Notes: a model not told the origin generated them from the letters alone. A stretch of 64,000 nt of DNA from Pseudomonadota bacterium (GCA_002747455.1 PDPG01000041.1:14980-78979); one strand, 5' to 3'; positions 3,205 through 14,406 are shown, numbered from the stretch's first letter. Numbers and translations are program-made.

Positions 3205-4482
3205 CTAAGCTGCCTGCTGCATTAGGCGATTGGCTTTTCGCCGCTGAAGCTCACTCCCATCAGCAATCACCTCTCGAAGTACAGACTTTGCCGATTCAAA
3301 ATCCGCAACCTCAAGATACGCCTCTGCCATATCCAGCTTCAGATCCACTTCTAATGTTCCTTCGTCGAACATTTTGAATACATTTTCCTCAGGATGGTGA
3401 GCAAGTTGGGCAAAACTTCGTTCTTCTTCGGCAACCGGTGTTTCCAGTAATAAATCCAAGCCATTTTCCTGATCAGCTGCCTGTGGCTCAGGATCAGGCG
3501 TATTAACTGCGCCGGAGCGCTTTCGGCGCGTTGCCAGCAATGCAACCATGACCAAAGAAAATAGTGCACCTGCTAGTACCATTAACCAAATCGGCAAATT
3601 CAGTTTTCCTCCAAACAAACTCAACTGTGGGCTTTCAGAGGTTTCACCAAAATAGTGAATACCGGGCTGTGACTCCTGCAGCACATGTTGAAGCTGCCGA
3701 TTCTCCTGTGTAAGTCGCGCAATCGTCTGGTCAGCTTGCGCACGGAGGAATATATTGTTTGATAACTCCGTTTGTGCTTTTGATAATTCCTCCTTTAGAG
3801 ATACCGTTTCTTGTTGAACAGCACGTAGTTTTTCCTGAAGTTCAAGCAACTCTGAAGAACTCACCTCGCCATTAACAAGCTTAGATTGATTATCAAGTAG
3901 CTTGGTTAAGCGAATGACTTCTTTATCTAAAATTAGTAATTGCTCATCAGATTTCTGACTATCCAACTCCAGCTGCCTAATTTTCTTCTCCAGCGTTGCC
4001 GTTTCGCGCTTTAATACCTCAACCTGACTAATCAGGCTACTACGTTCCGCTTCAAGAAAAATAATCCGATCCTGCATTTGTTGCGGTGTACGATCAGGCA
4101 AGTTAGCCACAGCCACATCAGTCGAAGCATCTGTTGAATGCTGAGGAGCAGCAACATTTTTTGGTGTTCTAAACCTTGGTTCGTTGACTAACCAATCATT
4201 CCCCGGCAATACCAATAATGCATCCCGCTTCAGGAGGTTCATATCCCCTCTCACGAATGCCGAAGGATTGGCCGCGACAATGGCTTTCATCAGTTGAAGT
4301 GTTGACCGATTCGGCCCAACATAAAAACGGTTTACAATTTTACCCAGTGTGTCTCTGGACTGCACAGGGCCATAGATCACATCAGCCGAGGCAGGTGCTG
4401 CCAAGCCCAACGTCGTTGAAACTACGAGCGCACTGATAAAAACACGTGAATTTAAGTATTTTGGCAGGATAAATACCGACAT
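3205..4482 (-). CDS. Compact FimV/HubP-like polar landmark protein (paralog A)
   Basis: Signal peptide; FimV-core LysM-like segment YGPVQSRDTL..NPSAFVRGDMNLL; coiled coil; single TM; C-terminal LDMAEAYLEVADFESAKSVLREVIADG FimV C-terminal motif. Confidence 0.8.
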   Translation of the reverse strand: MSVFILPKYLNSRVFISALVVSTTLGLAAPASADVIYGPVQSRDTLGKIVNRFYVGPNRSTLQLMKAIVAANPSAFVRGDMNLLKRDALLVLPGNDWLVNEPRFRTPKNVAAPQHSTDASTDVAVANLPDRTPQQMQDRIIFLEAERSSLISQVEVLKRETATLEKKIRQLELDSQKSDEQLLILDKEVIRLTKLLDNQSKLVNGEVSSSELLELQEKLRAVQQETVSLKEELSKAQTELSNNIFLRAQADQTIARLTQENRQLQHVLQESQPGIHYFGETSESPQLSLFGGKLNLPIWLMVLAGALFSLVMVALLATRRKRSGAVNTPDPEPQAADQENGLDLLLETPVAEEERSFAQLAHHPEENVFKMFDEGTLEVDLKLDMAEAYLEVADFESAKSVLREVIADGSELQRRKANRLMQQAA

Positions 4483-4626
4483 AACAATGCTCCAGCTTTG
4501 GTACCGAAGATTCGCCGGATGGCCCCGGTTAGGTCATTCTTATGATTTTTTATTGCGAATCCTGTCGGGAAATCTATCACCCCTGCCATAAAAATCTTGC
4601 AAAACCTGACAGGCGGTAGTTGAACC

Positions 4627-6165
4627 CTAATCAGCTAATCGTTTCAACATCAGTTGTGCCGATGCAGATTGCTGCCGACTGCCTTCTATTTGCACCTCTG
4701 CCAGTAATTCACGCGCTGCCTGCAGGTCTCCCAGCTCATCATAAGCTTCAGCCATCGCCAACTTCAACTCAGCCTCTGTTTGTTGATACTCAGAAACATC
4801 CGACTCAGAGGCCTCAGTAGTATTACCCTCTGCGTGCAGTGGCTGCTCCATAGTGGGATCAAGAATTGCAACTCGCGATGGATCACGCCGTGGTGGAACC
4901 CTTAGTGCATCAACATCTGGCTCAATTTTGTTAGGATCTACAGCACGGAAAACCAGCGTATCTTCAACGGATGGCTTGATCAGCGAATCTTGCTCTGCAG
5001 GCACCAAACCATCAGGGATGACTTTAGACCTTCTACGAGCCAGTAATACCATTAGCGCTGTTAGCGCCAGCCCTCCTAATAACAGACCCCATAATGGGAA
5101 TGTCACCGGCCTGCTCAGGCGCGCTACAGTGTCTTTACTTTTTATATTAGAACTCTGATCACCTACGGCGTGAGAAGGTGTTGCGTCCACAGCAGAACCA
5201 GTCGCAACCTCATTCTCGCTATTGACCACTGGGCGATCATCAATACGTTTTGAAGCTGACAGTTCAAGTGCCAACGCCTCATTTTCTTCCTTTAATTTGG
5301 CAATTTGAGACTCGTAGCGGTCAACCTTTTCGGTTAACGCTTTCACCTTCTTTTCTAGCGCGAGGTACTCAGTCTTTTTTGCTTCAAGTGAATTTTCTAA
5401 CGCCGATACCGCTTCATCTTTTGAAGACTGTAGTGTTGCAATACTCGCCTCTAAGGACTCAATTTGACGATCACGTTCAGCTATTATTGCCGCTTGCTCG
5501 CTTGTCAATGAAGCACTATTGTCCCGATTATCTAACTTGGCTTGCGCCAAACTAGATGCCGCTTTTGCTCTTGCCTCGGACAACTCGGTTCGCACTGCCT
5601 TGAGTGCAACATTAGCAGATTTTATCTCCGCATTCAGCCGTACATTACTTGCTCGCAGCTCTGAGATTTTTTCATTCTGCCTCGCCGTTTCTGCATCCAG
5701 TGAACGAAGCTTTTCATTCGCCCGGTCTCTCTCCGCACGAACAGAGGCCAGTTTTTTCTCAAGTGACTCAACTTTGGCATCACTCTGCCTTGATAGAACA
5801 GTCGCTTGCCGACGATTAACATGCCCTCTTCCTGATACAGTGGGAGTGACAGACCGAGCAATCGTCTCATTGCTTGGCAATGTGAGCATGACATTTTGCT
5901 TAAGCAAGCCCATATCATGATAAATAAACGCCTGAGGATTTCTGCGGAATATCTCCCGCATAATCGTCTGATCAGGAAATGGGCTAGCCATATAGTTCTC
6001 GTTTACAATGCTGCTAAGCGTTTCGCCTGCTCGAACCGGGCCATAACGGGTATCAGCCATCACGACAGATTGCAGCACAACAAAGCTACATAAAGCAGCA
6101 GGCAACAACGATCCTGCCCTATTACAAATAGAGAATAAACGAGAACTAGTCATAAGAAACCTCAA
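4627..6165 (-). CDS. Compact FimV/HubP-like polar landmark protein (paralog B)
   Basis: YGPVRAGETL..NPQAFIYHDMGLL core; long coiled coil; single TM; C-terminal LAMAEAYDELGDLQAARELLAEVQIEGS. Start overlaps the Roadblock stop (ATGA). Confidence 0.8.
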   Translation of the reverse strand: MRFLMTSSRLFSICNRAGSLLPAALCSFVVLQSVVMADTRYGPVRAGETLSSIVNENYMASPFPDQTIMREIFRRNPQAFIYHDMGLLKQNVMLTLPSNETIARSVTPTVSGRGHVNRRQATVLSRQSDAKVESLEKKLASVRAERDRANEKLRSLDAETARQNEKISELRASNVRLNAEIKSANVALKAVRTELSEARAKAASSLAQAKLDNRDNSASLTSEQAAIIAERDRQIESLEASIATLQSSKDEAVSALENSLEAKKTEYLALEKKVKALTEKVDRYESQIAKLKEENEALALELSASKRIDDRPVVNSENEVATGSAVDATPSHAVGDQSSNIKSKDTVARLSRPVTFPLWGLLLGGLALTALMVLLARRRSKVIPDGLVPAEQDSLIKPSVEDTLVFRAVDPNKIEPDVDALRVPPRRDPSRVAILDPTMEQPLHAEGNTTEASESDVSEYQQTEAELKLAMAEAYDELGDLQAARELLAEVQIEGSRQQSASAQLMLKRLAD

Positions 6166-6524
6166 AGAATCTTGGCGATACTCTCCGCGGCACGCTTAAC
6201 ATCAAGAAAGATCAAACCCAAACGTGCATTCGGTTTTGCCAGTACGGTTACAACAGCTTCGTGACCCGCATGCGTCATAAGAATATAACCTTGGTCACCT
6301 TTGACCAAAACTTGCTCCAAAGTACCACGAGCCAATTCCTGAGCCGTTCGATCCCCTAATGACAGCATGGCAGCACTCATTGCCCCCACACGGTCCTCGT
6401 CCATGGCAGCTGGTAATAATGCTGCCATCATCAGACCATCCTTTGATAATACCGCCGACGCCTCAATGTCAGCAGTTGAGCCATTTAAATCACTCAAAAT
6501 TGAATTCAGCATTTCTGCTCGCAT
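6162..6524 (-). CDS. Roadblock/LC7 (MglB-like) protein
   Basis: 120 aa; IEASAVLSKDGL..EDRVGAMSAAML..LEQVLVKGDQGY..LGLIFLD pattern of Roadblock/LC7; SD AGGAG upstream. Confidence 0.9.
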   Translation of the reverse strand: MRAEMLNSILSDLNGSTADIEASAVLSKDGLMMAALLPAAMDEDRVGAMSAAMLSLGDRTAQELARGTLEQVLVKGDQGYILMTHAGHEAVVTVLAKPNARLGLIFLDVKRAAESIAKIL

Positions 6525-6549
6525 GAGTTTTACTCCTGTGAAGTCTATT

Positions 6550-7206
6550 TTAATTCAGTATCATTGCGCCAGGAGCGCCATAACGTCGCTCTAACGCCCA
6601 TACCAGTTGTGTGAAAGCGGGCTGGTTTAATTGTGGCATCCCTCCCACGATTAGCGTGAAACGGTCGCCACCAACATACAGTGGCCAAAATCCGATTTCA
6701 CTATTGCCTGCGGCATCAATCAGGCCCCAGGCCCGTTGTGTATAGCCGAGGTTTCCTTTGAGGACATCTTGGTGTCTTCTATATATTGCTGTCAGGCTGG
6801 CACTCAGTGCGGCTAGTTCTTCTGCGGCCTCGTGAGGAAAGCCAGAGCTTCCCAAATAAAGTCCCTGCCCTTCAGCCAAGACGGCACGTCCGTTGTCAGA
6901 CAAACTTTGCAATAACCCTGGCAGCATCTTTTCCAAACTCCCCGTCGGTGCAAGCTGAGGTTCCTTTTGCCCACAGATAAAACCGGCATCTTGAAGCAAA
7001 TGAACAAACTCCAAGGTCTCTGTTTCATTACTTAAGCCACCAAGTGCTTGGGTGTTTTCAAGATTGAAAGCGGGTGTTTCATCAGCCCTTAGCAGACGGC
7101 GTAAAAACTCACGCCCAAATTGATCCGCATCGGACTGCACCGCATAAAAGCTCCCACCGGGCGTCACGCCCATATATAAATCTTCATTTGAAATAAAATT
7201 ACTCAT
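6550..7206 (-). CDS. Two-domain protein with a divergent C-terminal Roadblock/profilin-like fold
   Basis: C-half AVLAEGQGLYLGSSGF...AEELAALSASL resembles the Roadblock beta-hairpin plus helix; start overlaps the GTPase stop (ATGA). Confidence 0.55.
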   Translation of the reverse strand: MSNFISNEDLYMGVTPGGSFYAVQSDADQFGREFLRRLLRADETPAFNLENTQALGGLSNETETLEFVHLLQDAGFICGQKEPQLAPTGSLEKMLPGLLQSLSDNGRAVLAEGQGLYLGSSGFPHEAAEELAALSASLTAIYRRHQDVLKGNLGYTQRAWGLIDAAGNSEIGFWPLYVGGDRFTLIVGGMPQLNQPAFTQLVWALERRYGAPGAMILN

Positions 7207-7748
7207 AACATTTCCGCTCCGGGTGTCAGAGACATTAACATCGCTTGAATTAATAACGATACATCCTTGCGTTTGCGAGCATCCACTTCAAACACGGGGG
7301 CTCTAATTTTTAGCTGGTCCAACCAATGCCGATAATCATTTACAGTGGGCGTACGATGCGTATCCATACGGGTTACGCCAACAACAAGCTGCTGGGCTGC
7401 GATAAATTCACGAAAAGCCTGAGTATAAAACCTCAAATCCTGCTGAGGGTCTTTACGAGAATTATCAATTAATAACACCAGCCCTATCCCCCCTTTTGTG
7501 AGGATATCCCACATAAAATCGAAGCGCTCCTGACCCGGTGTGCCATAAAGATGAACCCGCTCATTCTCACCTAGCTGAATCATCCCATAATCCATCGCTA
7601 CCGTGGTTTCAGGCTTTTTCAACTTTGCCATATCGGATGCCTGTTCATCTGTTGTGACAATATCAATATCACTAATCACACGAATAGCCGTTGTCTTCCC
7701 CGCGCCGACAGGGCCGGTAAAAATAATTTTTTTGTTATCAGTACTCAT
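7203..7748 (-). CDS. MglA-like small GTPase (ATP_bind_1/CvnD type)
   Basis: 181 aa; G1 GPVGAGKTT, G2 ETTVAMDYG, G3 YGTPGQERF, G4 variant TRMD, G5 DAR. Confidence 0.9.
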   Translation of the reverse strand: MSTDNKKIIFTGPVGAGKTTAIRVISDIDIVTTDEQASDMAKLKKPETTVAMDYGMIQLGENERVHLYGTPGQERFDFMWDILTKGGIGLVLLIDNSRKDPQQDLRFYTQAFREFIAAQQLVVGVTRMDTHRTPTVNDYRHWLDQLKIRAPVFEVDARKRKDVSLLIQAMLMSLTPGAEML

Positions 7749-7758
7749 TATTTCTGCT

Positions 7759-9114
7759 TTAGCCCCCTATCAAACGTTTTAGTAAACGTGAAAATAAGCC
7801 ACGCGGCGCTTCGGTGGCACGTGTGGTAGGCTGTTTTTTAATCAATTTATCAGGATCCTGTTCAATTAATCCAAGGGCACTCGCTGCGTTATAAAAAGAA
7901 AAAACATAACGCTGAGGGATCTTCAATGACTTGGCGACATCAAAAGCACTGAGCGGGCCGGTAGACCACAAGGCGGCAATCGACATAACATGCGGGAAAT
8001 GTTCCAAGCGTGTCAGACTTGGCCAGTGTTTCAAAGCAACCGCTTTTGCCGGATCTAGCTCCCGTGACAATACCCCCTGTGCAGACAACAGACTGCTTGT
8101 CCAAACGAACGACTCAAGATCGTAAAGCGCAGAGGTTTGCTGCACAATCATGTCATTAAGCTCGTGAACTTCCTGTGTGCTTAAAATATGCATTTTCCCG
8201 CCATCCTGCACATTGCAGGCGTTGATAAAGGCTTCAAACTCCGGTGTATTCAGCGGAATTGCACAGAAAACCCGGTGTATTTCAGGCAGCACATAAATAC
8301 GCGCTTGTGGGAAATTAAGTAACACACCCTGCTGACATTGTCTGGCTAATCTCACTGCATCTTTTAAGCTGGACAGGTAAAAACTATCCTCCACCTGCAC
8401 ACTGCTATAGTCCTCTCCAGGATCAATATCAGGCCGCGAGCCGCACAGTTGTGCCCAGCGTGCTTCTTGCTCTTCTGGGGTCAATTCCGGCTCGCTGGGC
8501 GCTTGTGCTGATAAAGCAGTTCCTTCGAAGCCAGACACCATCCCCTCATCAGCCTTCGATAAGTCTTCTGTTGCCATAGCATCTTTTTGGTCAGCAACGA
8601 CATCGCCTACTAAAGGAATGTTGACCGAATGGTCAGCCGCTGGTTTTATTTCAGGGCGCTGTAGCGGCGTGTTTTTTTTGAATGCGGCACGCGCCTGTTT
8701 TTGCTGCTCCAAGTGCTGTCGCTGATCCTCAGAGGCAACTGCGGATGCAGTAATTGACTCAGGCTTATTAGGCAAATTTTCGGAAAGCTTGGATTGTACC
8801 TGTTCGGCGGCATCCAATAACGCCCGACTGGTTAGTGGTTTTGCTAACCAAATTGCATCCTCAAGTTCGACCGGGGCAATCGACAAAATAATGGCCGGTT
8901 TATGCCAGACTTGGAATGCTTCTTCATAATGCTGCCGTGCTGGTGGGTAGTCATAATCAATGATAAGTACATTCGCCTCATCCTGAGTATCGACCACCTT
9001 AAAAATATGCTGACCAAGCTTGGCAAAAAAGAAATCCAGAACTGCCTTATTGTGTGTGCCAACATCCTCAAGACACACACGCAACGTAATATTCTGATTG
9101 GGTTGATCAATCAT
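7759..9114 (-). CDS. Receiver-like N-domain, low-complexity linker, C-terminal WP/winged-helix domain protein
   Basis: N-terminal VLIIDYD...WLAKPL resembles receiver beta3-Asp and KP; Q/P/E-rich linker; C-terminal LKHWPSLTRL followed by an HTH-like segment (AFDVAKSLKIPQRYVFSFYNAASALGLI). Confidence 0.55.
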   Translation of the reverse strand: MIDQPNQNITLRVCLEDVGTHNKAVLDFFFAKLGQHIFKVVDTQDEANVLIIDYDYPPARQHYEEAFQVWHKPAIILSIAPVELEDAIWLAKPLTSRALLDAAEQVQSKLSENLPNKPESITASAVASEDQRQHLEQQKQARAAFKKNTPLQRPEIKPAADHSVNIPLVGDVVADQKDAMATEDLSKADEGMVSGFEGTALSAQAPSEPELTPEEQEARWAQLCGSRPDIDPGEDYSSVQVEDSFYLSSLKDAVRLARQCQQGVLLNFPQARIYVLPEIHRVFCAIPLNTPEFEAFINACNVQDGGKMHILSTQEVHELNDMIVQQTSALYDLESFVWTSSLLSAQGVLSRELDPAKAVALKHWPSLTRLEHFPHVMSIAALWSTGPLSAFDVAKSLKIPQRYVFSFYNAASALGLIEQDPDKLIKKQPTTRATEAPRGLFSRLLKRLIGG

Positions 9115-9129
9115 TGATAATAGTGACCT

Positions 9130-9825
9130 TTATTGGGTGTCAGGTTTAGGCAAATCCCAAACGGCCCCCGGTTCACGGCCTTGCTCCTGCAATAATCGCC
9201 GTAAACGCGCCTGACTATCATAATCCTTCGAATAGCTATACACGCGAAGTAACTCTTGTTCCGCTCTGGGATCACCTTCTGGATTCAACACTTCCTGCTC
9301 CAGCAGCTCTTGTGCTTCTTCCAGTTGACCATACTCCAGACAATCCAACGCCTCTTGGTAATAACTGGTATAAGCAGCCGCCCTACGCTCAGACAGCACT
9401 AACAGAGGCTCTGCTTTTTGAGTTAAACCGGTGGCCAGTACCGAGCCTGCGATAAAACGATCGTCATAACCACGCTCAAAGCCATCCGTCAGCCATATCT
9501 GAAAATATTGTTGATCAGCCTCGGACAAGTGCTCCCGAACCTGCTGGAAGACCAGCGTACGCAGCTTCAGGCCATTGTCGCGCAAAGCAATGAACAAATC
9601 CTGCAATGCACCGGCAAGATTATCCTCATTTTGATTCATTAGAACGCGTTGAACTTGCGCGCGTAGATCCAGCGGATAACGGCTAACATGATGTGCAAGG
9701 TGACGGCGACCGGGGGAAGTCTTTAACTCATCACGAAGCTGCAATGCTTTTTGATTATCCAAACTGAATGTTGCGGGAAGTTTAGCAATCTCCAACGCAT
9801 CCGTGTTATCACGGTTTACATTCAT
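9130..9825 (-). CDS. Soluble alpha-helical protein with a FimV-type TPR segment
   Basis: C-terminal EALDCLEYGQLEEAQELLEQEVLNPEGDPRAEQELLRVY resembles the FimV cytoplasmic TPR pattern; no TM or signal peptide; first gene of the operon. Confidence 0.55.
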   Translation of the reverse strand: MNVNRDNTDALEIAKLPATFSLDNQKALQLRDELKTSPGRRHLAHHVSRYPLDLRAQVQRVLMNQNEDNLAGALQDLFIALRDNGLKLRTLVFQQVREHLSEADQQYFQIWLTDGFERGYDDRFIAGSVLATGLTQKAEPLLVLSERRAAAYTSYYQEALDCLEYGQLEEAQELLEQEVLNPEGDPRAEQELLRVYSYSKDYDSQARLRRLLQEQGREPGAVWDLPKPDTQ

Positions 9826-10194
9826 ATTAAGATGTACCCAAAATCCTGATTGACACTCAAGGAATTACGGAATAGTTGCTAGACTGTATAAGAAAGAAAA
9901 CCAAAAAGATACACAACACTCTAATTTTTCTGATGATTCTTTACAGTTTCCAGACCAAACTACTGAACGGTTAATAACCTCCGATATTGCGATAAAGACA
10001 GTTTTAAAACGATTATCTGCTTATATTGACCCATAACCACCCAATCCAATGAAAACATTGAAATAAAAATTTTCCAAGATTTATACTCGGCACCATAAAA
10101 GCGATAATAATCCCACTGATTGTTGTGCTGATACCCCTCCAAACCGATCTGCACAGCAAAACACAGCCCCAATTCGCCAAAAGGCCATACACTT

Positions 10195-10584
10195 ATGTTC
10201 AGAAAAAAAACGAAACTTGCTGAACCCACACAACCGCGTCGTATTGCATCCCAGTTGGAACCTGACGTTGAGCTAGTGGGCGACCTTTCCTTTTCAGGAC
10301 TCCTTCAGGTTAAAGGCAATATTTATGGTAATGTCATCGCGCCAATGGATTCTGATGCCACACTACTAATTGAACCCGGCGCGACTATTACCGGCGAGGT
10401 ACGCGCCCCTTATATTCAAATTAAAGGCAAAGTCACCGGCGATGTATTTGCTACCAAGCGCATCCGCATCAATGTAGGTGCGATTGTGATTGGCAATATA
10501 CATTATGAAGAAATCGAGCTAGATCAAGGCGCACACTTGGCCGGACGCTTAATCTCCACAAAAGAAGAGCGCATTACTGACTAA
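10195..10584 (+). CDS. Bactofilin (polymer-forming cytoskeletal protein, CcmA/BacA family)
   Basis: Repeating beta-helix motifs LVGDLSFSGLLQVKGNIYGNV..ITGEVRAPYIQIKGKVTGDV..IGNIHYEEIELDQGAHLAGRL. Confidence 0.9.
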   Translation: MFRKKTKLAEPTQPRRIASQLEPDVELVGDLSFSGLLQVKGNIYGNVIAPMDSDATLLIEPGATITGEVRAPYIQIKGKVTGDVFATKRIRINVGAIVIGNIHYEEIELDQGAHLAGRLISTKEERITD

Positions 10585-11168
10585 CAACACGAATCAGGCT
10601 GCGCATCCGCTGGCAATGTCATACCCAAGGCTTCGCTAAGCCGTGCCCACTCAAAAAACGGGCCGGGGTCTGTTTTTCTATTGGGTGCGATATGTTCGTG
10701 TCCAGTGATGGCCTGCTTATCAAGACTGGGGTATTGGCTTTGTAGCTCTCGAATCAGGGCAATCAATGACTCATATTGCGCATCACAAAATGGCTCAAAG
10801 TCTGAGCCTTCTAACTCAATGCCAATTGAGAAATCATTACACACCTCGCGTGCTCTAAAACACGACACACCAGCATGCCAAGCTCGTTTATGAAACGGCA
10901 CATACTGTACAACGTCACCACTTCGCCGAATCAAAATATGGCTTGATACCCGTAAGTGAGTAATTTCAGCAAAAAATGGGTGATCGCTTTCACACAGACA
11001 ATTCGTAAACAATTGATCAATATACTCGCCACCAAATTGCTCAGGTGGTAATGAAATATTGTGGATCACGATCAGGCTAATATCGTTCGGGTCAGGCCGC
11101 TCATCACAATTAGGGGATGGTAGGAAGCGGGCATTGCTAACTAAACCGGAATGTTTGGATATTTTCAA
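10581..11168 (-). CDS. ampD: 1,6-anhydro-N-acetylmuramyl-L-alanine amidase AmpD
   Basis: PSPNCDERP, VIHNISLPP, VSSH, RAWHAGVS, NDFSIGIELEG, GHEHIAPNRKTDPGP. Start moved to TTG 11168 by family length (track start 11219). Confidence 0.95.
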   Translation of the reverse strand: MKISKHSGLVSNARFLPSPNCDERPDPNDISLIVIHNISLPPEQFGGEYIDQLFTNCLCESDHPFFAEITHLRVSSHILIRRSGDVVQYVPFHKRAWHAGVSCFRAREVCNDFSIGIELEGSDFEPFCDAQYESLIALIRELQSQYPSLDKQAITGHEHIAPNRKTDPGPFFEWARLSEALGMTLPADAQPDSCC

Positions 11169-11436
11169 AGAAACCCCAACAAGATAGAAGGTATCGATAA
11201 AACACCGGCTCAATTCCAAGGGAAGTGAGCCGGAGGTACTGCTAGATTGGGGAACGTCAGGTTAAATCTGATACACCGGATTGACAAGCATTAAAAACTT
11301 AACATTGCCAAAACGTAATCTTAACTCAACAGTATTTTTCTCCACATCCATCGCCTCAAAACCAGCGCCCAAATTCACCCCTAAAACAGTCTTTCGAAGG
11401 GATTTTATCGGTGTTTGTCAAGGATAAATTTCTGAC

Positions 11437-11736: not shown

Positions 11737-14406
11737 CTAAAAATTCAGCGAAATATCCCGATGCTCAGACTGACACATCGCGATATGTTTGGCTTGGGCA
11801 TCACTTAGGCGAGGCTGCGATCGAAGACCAATGGTTTTAGAGATCGCCGTGTCATAGACCTGCAACGCTGGAGCCAATGACTTTTCAGCACGCTCACGCC
11901 ACTGCATCTGCGCCACATAACGATCAATGGCATTCTTTTGATAGCCCAGTGCTTTTGTCCGGCCTGCTGCTGAATCATCTTTTTTGATTGTCCGCCGCGC
12001 TTTGGATAGTGCCGACTTGATGTTGCTGGCTCCGGCTACATCCCCCAAACGACTTTCAATGGCTTTAATCGTTTTCATCGCAGCATCCTTTGGTGCATGG
12101 CTGATAGATTCTGCCAAACTGTCAATTTGTGGCCGCAAGTCCCGTAATGCAGTAGTCGCTGCAATGATTTTTTGCAAGTCCTTAACCGATTCGTAGGCAC
12201 TGTCAGTTAGGTTGTAGTATTCACGACGCGACTTTGTCAGCGCCTGACTCAGCTCAGAATAACGATCACGCGCCGCTTGCCAGTTTTCAGGGATAGATTC
12301 CTGTAGCCGTGCCTGTTCCGCTTTTTTCGCCTTGATCTCGGCAGTCATTGTATCGCTGCTTACCGAGTGATCCCCTGCTTCATAGGCTAAATTTCTAATC
12401 CCCTCTTCCAGTGTTTTAATGCGCTCAGACAGACGATTAATATCCTGCTCAATCTTCCGTACATTGCGATGCAGTGGCTCATATTCCGGCACATAAGCCG
12501 CCAGGGACTGCTTTGCAGTAGCGATATCCGCCATTAAGGCAAAACTGTTTGCAGCATTAGCAGTACCTTCTGTCCAGCTACGCTGTAAGTCTTCTGGCAA
12601 ATAAGACACATCCAAACTCCGCGCCTTGCGGATGGCAGCGCGAATGTTGCTCTCATCAGCACTGTACTCATCCACCACATAATCTTCCAAACAACGCTGA
12701 AGCTTAGGATTCATCGGTGGCGGGGCTGTATCCGACAATAAGTGGGTACGATTCGGTAGATAATTAACCAGCACCGGAAAATACCCGGCTATTGCCAAGC
12801 CAACGAGCTGCAAGCCAATAAACACCATCGCACCCTTGTAGATATCCATGGTTCTAATGGCCTTTTCTGCCACGCCACGCAAATAAAACAGCGCAAAACC
12901 AAACGGTGGTGTCAGGAAAGAGGTCTGAATGTTCAAACCAATCATCACGCCCAACCACACAGCCGTGATATTTGCCTCAGGGTTTGCCAGCAGAATGGGC
13001 GCAACTATCGGCACCACCACGACAGCAATCTCAATAAAATCAAGGAAGAAACCCAGCAGGAAGATTACCAACATGACCACCAGGAACTGTGTCCAAAAAC
13101 CGCCGGGAAGCCCTGTCAGATAATGTTTAACTAGTTCTTCACCACCAAATGCCCGAAACGCTGAGGTCAGCATTGCCGCACCGATCAGAATAATGAACAC
13201 CATTGAGGTAGTTTTAGCCGTCTCAACCATGACCTTTTTTAAGGTGTCATCGACTCGGTAAACACGCCAGGCGCTCCAGGCCACGGCGAACAGCAATACA
13301 GCTACAGCGATAGCCGCATAGATAATGGCTTGACGATCTTCATCGCTTTGAATATGTCGCACATTGAGCGAATGTTCACTGCGTAAGTAGGCGATACATA
13401 TCAGCGAAGCCACGGCAAGAATCGCCGGAATAAATGACGACCAGCCGCCTCGGTGAAGCCGATAGCCTGCCATAATCATGGCACCAACCGCACCGATGGA
13501 TCCCGCCTGATTTACTGTCGCGACACCTAAAATGATGGAGCCAAGTACCACAAAAATCAGCGTTAACGGTGGCACCAGTGAGAGCAAAATGCTGCGTACA
13601 AATTTGGCATCATACGCACCTTTATAAGGCACCGGTGGCGCGAGGCTAGGCTTGAGCCATGCAACCACGAGGATATACAGCATGTACAAGCCAACCAGAA
13701 TGGCACCGGGAATCAGCGCCCCCATGAACATATCTCCGGCACTGGCAGATACCACATCAAACTGCGACGGCATGGAAAACTCGCCAGTGGCTTCCCTATA
13801 CAATGCCTTGCGTGCGGTATTGGCCTGATCTGCTGCGCTGGATAGTTGGTCAGCCAGGATAATGAGTACAATCGAAGGCGGGATAATCTGTCCCAAGGTA
13901 CCAGAGGCGCAAATTGTGCCGGTGGCTAAGGGCTTGGAATAATTATTTCGCATCATGGCGGGCAGGGAAATCAAACCCATAGCGATCACCGTCGCGCCAA
14001 CAATGCCCGTCGTTGCCGCCAGTAACGCACCGACGAATACCACCGAAATACCCAAGCCGCCCGGAATTGGGCCAAACAACTGCGCCATTGCCACCAACAA
14101 ATCTTCGGCGATTTTTGAGCGCTGTAGCATGATGCCCATAAAGATGAACAACGGAATTGCAATCAAGGTATCCCGCTCAACAACCCAGTACAAACTTCGG
14201 AAGTTGGTCACACCGGCACTTAGCCATTGCTTGGGGCCGTCCTGAGCAAAATAAGCACCGACATCACCAGCGAATAGATAGCCGCAAGCCGCAGCCAGTA
14301 ACACCGTAATAATCGCAGAACCGGGCAAGGCAAAAGCCACTGGAAAACCGGATACCAGTGCCGCCGCCATCAGCAGAAACAACACTCCTAAAAAGACTAA
14401 TTCCAT
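11737..14406 (-). CDS. TRAP transporter large permease (DctM) with ~330 aa soluble C-terminal extension
   Basis: ASGTLGQIIPPSIVL, LGFFLDFIEI, QTSFLTPPFGFALFYLRG motifs; 889 aa versus roughly 430 for a typical DctM. Confidence 0.9.
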   Translation of the reverse strand: MELVFLGVLFLLMAAALVSGFPVAFALPGSAIITVLLAAACGYLFAGDVGAYFAQDGPKQWLSAGVTNFRSLYWVVERDTLIAIPLFIFMGIMLQRSKIAEDLLVAMAQLFGPIPGGLGISVVFVGALLAATTGIVGATVIAMGLISLPAMMRNNYSKPLATGTICASGTLGQIIPPSIVLIILADQLSSAADQANTARKALYREATGEFSMPSQFDVVSASAGDMFMGALIPGAILVGLYMLYILVVAWLKPSLAPPVPYKGAYDAKFVRSILLSLVPPLTLIFVVLGSIILGVATVNQAGSIGAVGAMIMAGYRLHRGGWSSFIPAILAVASLICIAYLRSEHSLNVRHIQSDEDRQAIIYAAIAVAVLLFAVAWSAWRVYRVDDTLKKVMVETAKTTSMVFIILIGAAMLTSAFRAFGGEELVKHYLTGLPGGFWTQFLVVMLVIFLLGFFLDFIEIAVVVVPIVAPILLANPEANITAVWLGVMIGLNIQTSFLTPPFGFALFYLRGVAEKAIRTMDIYKGAMVFIGLQLVGLAIAGYFPVLVNYLPNRTHLLSDTAPPPMNPKLQRCLEDYVVDEYSADESNIRAAIRKARSLDVSYLPEDLQRSWTEGTANAANSFALMADIATAKQSLAAYVPEYEPLHRNVRKIEQDINRLSERIKTLEEGIRNLAYEAGDHSVSSDTMTAEIKAKKAEQARLQESIPENWQAARDRYSELSQALTKSRREYYNLTDSAYESVKDLQKIIAATTALRDLRPQIDSLAESISHAPKDAAMKTIKAIESRLGDVAGASNIKSALSKARRTIKKDDSAAGRTKALGYQKNAIDRYVAQMQWRERAEKSLAPALQVYDTAISKTIGLRSQPRLSDAQAKHIAMCQSEHRDISLNF

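Follow-up and report, generated by a model that had tools for sequence, protein, structure and literature searches.

We analyzed a stretch of 64,000 nucleotides (hereafter, the window) from a Pseudomonadota assembly (GCA_002747455.1, PDPG01000041.1:14980-78979; 2.59 Mb in 75 contigs), whose source is a Leucothrix genome, the GTPase encoded in the window being 91% identical to that of L. pacifica. The locus under study is a seven-gene cluster encoding, in gene order, a soluble protein (g1), a receiver-like protein (g2), a small GTPase (g3), a divergent Roadblock-like protein (g4, or R4), a canonical Roadblock protein (g5, or R5) and two miniature FimV proteins (mini-FimV; g6 and g7). With moderate confidence, we favor the reading that this locus is an extended Group 3 MglA switch operon, in which g1 and mini-FimV would constitute a split FimV-type anchor placing the GTPase/Roadblock switch. 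Genes g1 to g5 make up a Group 3 MglA system, catalogued and hardly studied functionally, and what appears to be new is the extended form, with mini-FimV, bactofilin and a proposed split-FimV adaptor. The initial annotation of the window had presented the system as a candidate undescribed one; this did not hold for the core, which is Group 3 MglA (PMC4316618), and did hold for the FimV-coupled version, which has no functional description in the public literature, where our search returned no paper combining FimV, Roadblock and GTPase.

The FimV-related protein g1, mini-FimV and the bactofilin neighbor

The g1 gene (9130-9825, minus strand) encodes a protein of 231 amino acids (aa), which has a C-terminal FimV-type segment resembling tetratricopeptide repeats (TPR) and, ahead of it, a conserved N-terminal domain. 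No Pfam TPR match and no Pfam or NCBIfam family was found for this protein, which presents the conserved motif LEYGQxExAxxLLExAxL...ELLxIY and whose gene opens the five-gene cassette at almost all loci. In an hhalign comparison with the 1063-aa FimV of this genome, residues 149-227 of g1 were paired with residues 633-712 (probability 81%, E 1.3e-5), the g1 profile matches the FimV C-terminal domain (PDB 4MAL, E 0.002), and in ~40 genomes of a 61-genome sample of the family Thiotrichaceae the g1 segment matches an open reading frame (ORF) of ~950-1280 aa, presumed to be FimV. These profile comparisons show homology between the C-terminus of g1 and the TPR region in the cytoplasmic part of full-length FimV, a relationship that the initial annotation had not mentioned, as it had not mentioned the conserved bactofilin neighbor.

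Moreover, g1 relatives recur beside mini-FimV at loci that have no GTPase gene. In this genome, a GTPase-free module on contig C5:24180-26202 (locus L111: 7181-8458 and 8535-9203, minus strand) begins with a paralog of g1 that encodes 222 aa; directly downstream stand a third mini-FimV gene (425 aa) and then a gene for a PBP4/DacB-type D-Ala-D-Ala carboxypeptidase. The same pair, a g1-like gene followed by mini-FimV, was found at 12 of 14 second g1 loci from other Thiotrichaceae, the remaining two being cut by contig ends, and a g1 paralog stands directly upstream of mini-FimV in all 13 evaluable GTPase-less Thiotrichaceae loci. Outside this family, the pair was sought at ten stand-alone g1 loci from the class-wide sample described below, and none of them presented a mini-FimV neighbor; six had an R4-like gene directly adjoining g1, two were GTPase-less g1-g2-R4 cassettes, and two were cassette fragments at contig ends. 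Since g1 repeatedly adjoins mini-FimV or R4, the pattern is that expected of an adaptor between both, and we propose that g1 may serve as this adaptor, acting as a cytoplasmic TPR module separated from the rest of a split FimV.

The FimV-like genes of the cluster are g6 (mini-FimV B; 4627-6165, minus strand; 512 aa from a TTG start, or 508 aa from an ATG at 6153) and g7 (mini-FimV A; 3205-4482, minus strand; 425 aa). Their common layout comprises a signal peptide, a LysM-like FimV core, a periplasmic coiled coil, one transmembrane (TM) helix and a cytoplasmic tail with a terminal FimV C-terminal motif. Hydropathy places the TM helix of g6 at ~358-376, with a cytoplasmic tail of ~135 aa, and in g7 the LysM-like domain spans residues 40-96 and the TM helix residues 298-316, with a tail of ~108 aa. 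In searches with hidden Markov models (HMMs), the FimV_Cterm match anticipated by the initial annotation was recovered for both proteins (TIGR03504; g6, E 1.2e-8 and 34.8 bits; g7, E 1.2e-11 and 44.4 bits; cut-off 30.65 bits), whereas FimV_core remained below its cut-off of 43.45 bits (TIGR03505; g6, E 2.7e-7 and 30.3 bits; g7, E 8.5e-9 and 35.1 bits). The LysM-like core presents a conserved motif pattern common to g6, g7 and the full-length FimV of this genome. In the structural model of the g7 N-domain, a beta-alpha-alpha-beta topology was observed (predicted local distance difference test, pLDDT, 80), the best Foldseek matches being LysM proteins at weak significance (E 0.1-1.4), and the L. 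pacifica ortholog of g7 is named 'FimV/HubP family polar landmark protein' in RefSeq.

The large acidic, TPR- or repeat-rich cytoplasmic region that follows the TM helix of FimV and HubP is lacking in g6 and g7; their tails being so short, both are miniature relatives and not hubs of FimV/HubP size. A role of g6 or g7 as the genome's main FimV was likewise ruled out by the 1063-aa FimV, which is encoded on another contig. The single FimV-like genes found in other genera are mostly closer matches to g7 than to g6, and a second cassette-linked FimV copy was seen in Leucothrix loci only (L001 and L003).

Beyond g1, a bactofilin gene (10195-10584, plus strand; 129 aa; PF04519, E 2.1e-21, 76.5 bits against a cut-off of 27.9) is divergent from the operon. 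The intergenic region of 369 bp (9826-10194) is common to both and is their presumed promoter region, with two promoter-like sites within 10058-10108 (plus strand). A bactofilin homolog adjoins g1 in 46 related loci, all of them in the mini-FimV clade described below; it is divergent in Thiotrichaceae and co-directional, abutting g1, in Sphaerotilus, Leptothrix and Rhodocyclaceae, and the beta-proteobacterial loci present nine co-directional genes in one tight same-strand cluster. Among 72 loci with enough flank, bactofilin and mini-FimV were both present in 39, both absent in 30 and discordant in three (2 + 1). The adjacency of the switch to mini-FimV and bactofilin suggests, without proving it, a fixed cellular site of action for the switch.

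Distribution and evolution of the FimV link

The FimV link was traced with custom HMMs for the FimV-like N-domain and C-motif, which were sensitive enough to recover the 1063-aa FimV of this genome. A FimV-like gene was found at the 3' end of the cassette in almost all Thiotrichaceae loci, in the Sphaerotilus/Leptothrix group and in one Rhodocyclaceae metagenome-assembled genome (MAG), and these HMMs detected no FimV-like neighbor in the cassettes of Halothiobacillaceae, Methylococcales, Chromatiaceae and Thiodiazotropha. The neighborhood analysis that the initial annotation had called for therefore went in favor of the coupling: FimV-like genes stay linked in Leucothrix, in most other Thiotrichaceae and in the Sphaerotilus/Leptothrix group, and, as the linkage is kept in close relatives, the objection that these genes might be unlinked there fails.

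In a tree of concatenated GTPase, R4 and R5 sequences, the FimV-linked loci were grouped in one clade (56 rows, 50 with FimV; Shimodaira-Hasegawa-like approximate likelihood ratio test, SH-aLRT, 85), in which six loci were exceptions; as two of these are contig ends, linkage was observed in 50 of the 54 loci that could be evaluated. Nearly all clade loci with mini-FimV also have a bactofilin gene beside g1. Five changes, consisting of one gain and a few losses, suffice for the pattern of the FimV link, which has outlasted several rearrangements: presence or absence of PAS and PhnD-like genes ahead of the FimV gene, duplication of this gene in Leucothrix, and inversion of the bactofilin gene. 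The FimV link characterizes a single clade and does not extend to Group 3 overall. Indeed, in a class-wide sample of 400 evenly drawn gamma- and beta-proteobacterial genomes, the GTPase was present in 59 (~15%), and a FimV-like neighbor was seen in the same-family genomes only. The FimV core domain was detected in 58 of these 59 genomes versus 311 of the 400 overall (p ~6e-6, estimated by hand and uncorrected for phylogeny), which is weak support for a link, FimV being common anyway.

The cassettes of the Sphaerotilus/Leptothrix group and of one Rhodocyclaceae MAG are sister to those of Thiotrichaceae (SH-aLRT 85), and another Rhodocyclaceae cassette (L076) has a separate position in the tree, a placement suggesting that the extended cluster was transferred horizontally among filamentous bacteria with common habitats. 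The clade consists mostly of filamentous, holdfast- or sheath-forming genera, and this biology fits a role in pole or septum differentiation, as a correlation within a single clade.

The Group 3 MglA core, gene layout and cluster edges

The co-orientation of the seven genes given in the initial annotation was confirmed, since seven minus-strand ORFs occupy positions 9825-3205, and the names assigned to them are backed by HMM and fold evidence. Likewise, the first six genes are spaced by less than 30 bp, with measured values of 15 (g1-g2), 10 (g2-g3), -4 (g3-g4), 25 (g4-g5, containing an AGGAG Shine-Dalgarno, SD, sequence) and -4 bp (g5-g6). The ATGA overlap described between GTPase and Roadblock-like genes is present at g3/g4, but the one described at g5/g6 is not: this junction is a TTGA overlap if g6 starts at the TTG at 6165, and the alternative ATG lies 8 nt past the g5 stop, preceded by a GAGG SD. 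The spacing between g6 and g7 is 144 bp. The arrangement of g1 to g5 is not due to chance, because the same order recurs in essentially all of 80 related loci fetched from Thiotrichales, Chromatiales including Halothiobacillaceae, Methylococcales, Burkholderiales and Rhodocyclales. Among public sequencing runs searched for transcripts, none contained the window stretch. Metatranscriptome contigs matching the Sphaerotilus natans locus were at least 10 kb long, with flat depth across and beyond the cluster; they probably contain DNA and are uninformative on co-transcription.

The g3 gene (7203-7748, minus strand; 181 aa) encodes an MglA-family small GTPase of Group 3, for which the proposed ATP_bind_1 search was positive (PF03029, E 1.3e-11), together with TIGR00231 small_GTP (E 4.5e-7), the best PDB matches being the MglA proteins of Myxococcus and Thermus (E 6e-5). 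The motifs G1 (GPVGAGKTT), T48-T49, G3 (GTPGQE), G4 (T126..D129, read as TRMD, with no lysine) and G5 (DAR156-158) were invariant or nearly so in 80 homologs. Lack of the G4 lysine and DAR as G5 are known deviations of Groups 2 and 3 of MglA (PMC4316618). The g5 gene (6162-6524, minus strand; 120 aa) encodes a canonical MglB-type Roadblock/LC7 protein (Robl_LC7, E 2.3e-15; NCBIfam MglB, weak), is kept in all related loci, and is presumed to act on g3 as a GTPase-activating protein or regulator, probably jointly with R4. The g4 gene (6550-7206, minus strand; 218 aa), whose start overlaps the g3 stop, encodes a divergent Roadblock-like protein with an N-terminal extension. While the Roadblock/LC7 prediction of the initial annotation was clear for g5, g4 matched Robl_LC7 below the 23-bit cut-off (E 0.002, 18.3 bits). 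The best PDB match of the g4 profile was the conservon Roadblock protein CvnB5 (3LEQ, E 0.057), its L. pacifica ortholog is labelled 'Roadblock/LAMTOR2 domain-containing' in UniProt, and the protein is strongly conserved (mean column identity 56%).

The g2 gene (7759-9114, minus strand; 451 aa) encodes a protein whose N-terminal part has a CheY-like receiver fold; a disordered linker (~117-204) joins this part to a C-terminal alpha/beta domain that ends in winged-helix-like helices (AlphaFold2 model, mean pLDDT 81.9). The top 50 Foldseek PDB matches were almost all receiver domains (probability ~1.0, E 2e-3 to 7e-2), with target-normalised TM-scores (TMt) of ~0.5-0.65 against stand-alone receiver domains; receiver-domain matches filled this list, and the C-domain received none among them. 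Among g2 homologs, D55 and K92-P93 are invariant and D53 is nearly so. There was no Pfam or NCBIfam family for g2 and no consistent Pfam match among 28 homologs, none of which matched DUF742, and no helix-turn-helix (HTH) family was detected by sequence. [quoted passage not shown]

The Group 3 MglA system was catalogued in 2014 as confined to beta- and gamma-proteobacteria, including Neisseria, Xanthomonas and Stenotrophomonas (Wuichet & Sogaard-Andersen, PMC4316618). The core of the cluster is assigned to this group because its GTPase motifs, its receiver-like partner and its two Roadblock genes match that description: G3 reads xxPGQ, G4 lacks the lysine of NKxD and G5 is DAR; g2 provides the receiver-like and winged-helix-like partner, the winged helix being seen only as a helical pattern in the model; and the Roadblock genes, of which Group 3 systems have one or two of MglB type, occur within the beta/gamma range. 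Experimental hints for Group 3 were limited to one finding: in Snodgrassella, a point mutation of an orphan mglB changed spreading on soft agar (PMC11112851).

An orphan GTPase paralog was also observed in this genome (contig C38:11679-12608; locus L112: 7680-8609), with 45% identity over the GTPase domain, a C-terminal extension of ~130 aa, no recognisable adjoining Roadblock gene and a rhodanese-domain gene two genes downstream. Furthermore, two loci of the sample (L194, in genome G199, and L197, in genome G140) keep g1, g2, R4 and R5, with PAS and PhnD-like genes in L194, and have no GTPase gene at the locus; in G199 no GTPase match was obtained genome-wide at E<=1e-20. In such loci the accessory proteins may have no GTPase partner, or one that is distant.

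Most cassettes carry PAS and PhnD-like genes after R5, and in Thiothrix and Sphaerotilus these stand between R5 and the FimV gene. In this genome, PAS (162 aa) and PhnD-like (248 aa) genes are paired on contig C72:20330-21561 (locus L174: 6331-7562; HMM E 3e-84 and 8e-111, respectively). As the pair is on a separate contig, the system is spread over at least two loci in Leucothrix.

In the window, the cluster is flanked by genes for AmpD, a DctM-type transporter and cmk, and in two relatives with checked flanks by UbiA, FabA, TatD, HrpA, DUF3025 and similar genes; the latter, unrelated housekeeping genes past the bactofilin and mini-FimV flanks, mark the edges of the cluster. The AmpD-type N-acetylmuramoyl-L-alanine amidase gene (10581-11219, minus strand) adjoins the bactofilin gene, as in two other Leucothrix loci, and in an unrelated genus two genomes have an AmpD gene next to a stand-alone g1-R4 pair or close to it. 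These AmpD neighbors, noted also for loci L192 and L193, may reflect a peptidoglycan-related role, or chance, and AmpD and PBP4 genes beside some g1 modules are a hint of a cell-wall process. The DctM gene is an 889-aa ORF (11737-14406, minus strand) joining a TRAP-transporter DctM membrane domain with a C-terminal coiled coil of ~250 aa, an unusual architecture with no evident connection to the operon. No pilus gene was found beside the cluster in the loci examined. Elsewhere in this genome, PilT/PilU-family genes are located on contigs C52:31400-34662 and C72:57475-58494, four of them above the TIGR01420 cut-off and three in tandem; four retraction-ATPase paralogs are many for a 2.6-Mb genome.

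Proposed mechanism, rival explanations and known systems

In the mechanism that we propose, the LysM-like domain of mini-FimV would bind to peptidoglycan at a fixed site, such as the pole or septum, and its short tail and the soluble g1 would together rebuild a FimV-like cytoplasmic platform, the 'split FimV'. From this platform g1 would bridge to the R4/R5 Roadblock pair, which would set the GTP/GDP state of g3, and the GTPase switch would be active at a defined place, perhaps on a bactofilin patch, with g2 and the PAS/PhnD-like proteins (unlinked in this genome) supplying input or output. Candidate outputs are polar or septal envelope structures (holdfast, gonidium differentiation, wall remodeling) or type IV pili (T4P). 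There is precedent for both kinds of landmark, since FimV keeps the receiver protein PilG at the pole via the adaptor FimL in Pseudomonas (PMC10519157), and the bactofilin BacP serves SofG, a small GTPase, as landmark in Myxococcus. A more specific form of the proposal is tentative: g1, as a detached soluble TPR module of FimV, might bridge peptidoglycan-anchored mini-FimV, or perhaps full-length FimV where a bacterium has no mini-FimV, to R4/R5, so that with the bactofilin patch the Group 3 GTPase would become an anchored polarity switch; in filamentous Thiotrichaceae and in bacteria of the Sphaerotilus type, this switch would mark the pole or septum at which gonidia, holdfasts or pili form.

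Several points weigh against the split-anchor proposal. The functional links all come from gene neighborhood and homology, and the homology between g1 and FimV is modest, the hhalign probability noted above extending over ~80 TPR-like residues. Most Group 3 cassettes are without an adjoining FimV-like gene, and within the clade four loci have no FimV-like gene despite ample flank, three of them also being without bactofilin. Moreover, the association of FimV and bactofilin is essentially one evolutionary event, and persistence of the link may therefore partly reflect inheritance and not selection. The gap ahead of g7 leaves its co-transcription open, and a T4P gene adjoins the cluster in none of the loci examined.

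A different explanation, close to the T4P control put forward in the initial annotation, is one in which an MglA/MglB-like polarity oscillator would be placed by a FimV hub and would set the leading pole or the direction of T4P twitching or gliding. The nearest solved relatives of the GTPase are MglA proteins, T4P motors are encoded in the genome (the four PilT/PilU-family genes above the cut-off), PilB and PilT of Myxococcus are positioned by SofG together with BacP, FimV of Pseudomonas is a hub associated with T4P (PMC10519157), and the Snodgrassella mutation in an orphan Group 3 mglB alters soft-agar spreading (PMC11112851). However, the Snodgrassella evidence consists of one allele and a spreading phenotype without a direct pilus assay. 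The separate full-length FimV is a likelier T4P hub, the partners and motifs of Group 3 are unlike those of Myxococcus Group 1, and mature Leucothrix and Thiothrix filaments are sessile. Nothing in the neighborhood points to type IV pili, as no pil gene lies in or beside the cluster at loci with checked flanks and the genes past it in two relatives are housekeeping genes. The specific T4P proposal finds no support in these data, and we consider T4P-directed oscillation unlikely. A signaling pathway, in which mini-FimV would be a transmembrane sensor of peptidoglycan or periplasm that reports via g1 and the Roadblock pair to the GTPase, with transcription as output through g2, seems comparably improbable to us. 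A transcriptional output has been proposed from the receiver-like and winged-helix architecture (PMC4316618), the related conservons of actinobacteria serve regulation, PAS and PhnD-like sensor genes occur in most cassettes and are kept, although unlinked, in this genome, and AmpD or PBP4 genes adjoin some g1 modules; nevertheless, DNA binding by g2 is putative, its sequence revealed no HTH family, the matches listed in its fold search fell on the receiver domain, and a bactofilin neighbor with a FimV-type anchor fits scaffolding better than transcriptional signaling. Signaling and positioning are compatible models that do not exclude each other.

It could also be argued that the adjacency has no function, the mini-FimV and bactofilin genes being independent genes of envelope or cytoskeleton that landed once beside the cassette and were inherited passively. 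A single gain explains the distribution, most cassettes work without these neighbors, the 144-bp gap precedes g7, the bactofilin gene is on the opposite strand in Thiotrichaceae, and co-transcription is unproven. Against this, the link persists across two orders despite local rearrangements, the beta-proteobacterial loci have all nine genes co-directional and tightly packed, bactofilin and mini-FimV are jointly missing at three of the four FimV-less clade loci, and the FimV-related g1 pairs with mini-FimV in GTPase-free loci, for which passive synteny offers no explanation. Functionless adjacency is, in our judgment, very unlikely.

The split-anchor proposal matters since no cellular role has so far been assigned to Group 3 MglA. 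The cluster of this clade unites the switch with a FimV-type membrane protein bearing a LysM-like domain and with a bactofilin, the universal cassette protein g1 is shown to be FimV-related, and a testable chain of contacts would run from the mini-FimV tail to g1, from g1 to R4/R5 and from R4/R5 to the GTPase. Should the more specific form above hold, Group 3 MglA would gain its first cellular function and FimV-type hubs their first Ras-like client. The chain of contacts, if true, would join the so far separate fields of FimV/HubP polar hubs and Ras-like GTPase polarity modules, and it might bear on pole definition in filamentous sulfur and sheathed bacteria.

Compared with known systems, the core resembles the actinobacterial conservons (CvnA-D/Mfp; Group 2) in its operon-encoded GTPase with odd G4 and G5 motifs and its Roadblock protein; however, membership was ruled out because a gene for a CvnA-type histidine kinase is missing from the operon and searches for DUF742/CvnC-type proteins, among them those with the 28 g2 homologs, found none. 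With the MglA/MglB and SofG-BacP systems of Myxococcus xanthus it has in common a small MglA-family GTPase under Roadblock control and a bactofilin as landmark for a small GTPase, but those belong to Group 1, their partner genes are unlinked whereas those described here are clustered, they have no FimV-type anchor, and g1 and g2 have no counterpart there. A Group 1 GTPase has a canonical G4 and works with RomR/RomX and a single MglB as homodimeric GTPase-activating protein, while in this cluster the G4 and G5 motifs are of Group 2/3 type, the two Roadblock genes are dissimilar, and the partners are g1 and g2 (RomR and RomX were not searched for). The cluster agrees with Group 3 MglA (PMC4316618) in GTPase subgroup (G3 PGQ, lysine-free G4, G5 DAR), in its receiver-like and winged-helix-like partner, in its two coupled MglB/Roadblock genes and in taxonomic range, and it differs in that g1 and the PAS/PhnD-like, bactofilin and FimV-like genes, which are conserved parts of the wider cassette or of the clade's version, did not figure in the 2014 description. 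Finally, mini-FimV has in common with FimV of P. aeruginosa and HubP of Vibrio a putative LysM-type periplasmic domain, a single TM helix and the FimV C-terminal TPR-like motif; in contrast to those proteins of ~900-1600 aa, the forms of 425 and 512 aa are without the long acidic or repeat-rich cytoplasmic region, and g1 appears to provide their TPR part as a separate protein. The clients so far known for FimV and HubP comprise FimL/PilG and ParA-type ATPases and no Ras-like GTPase, and the tether from FimV through an adaptor to a receiver protein (PMC10519157) resembles the chain proposed here from mini-FimV through g1 to g2 and the GTPase.

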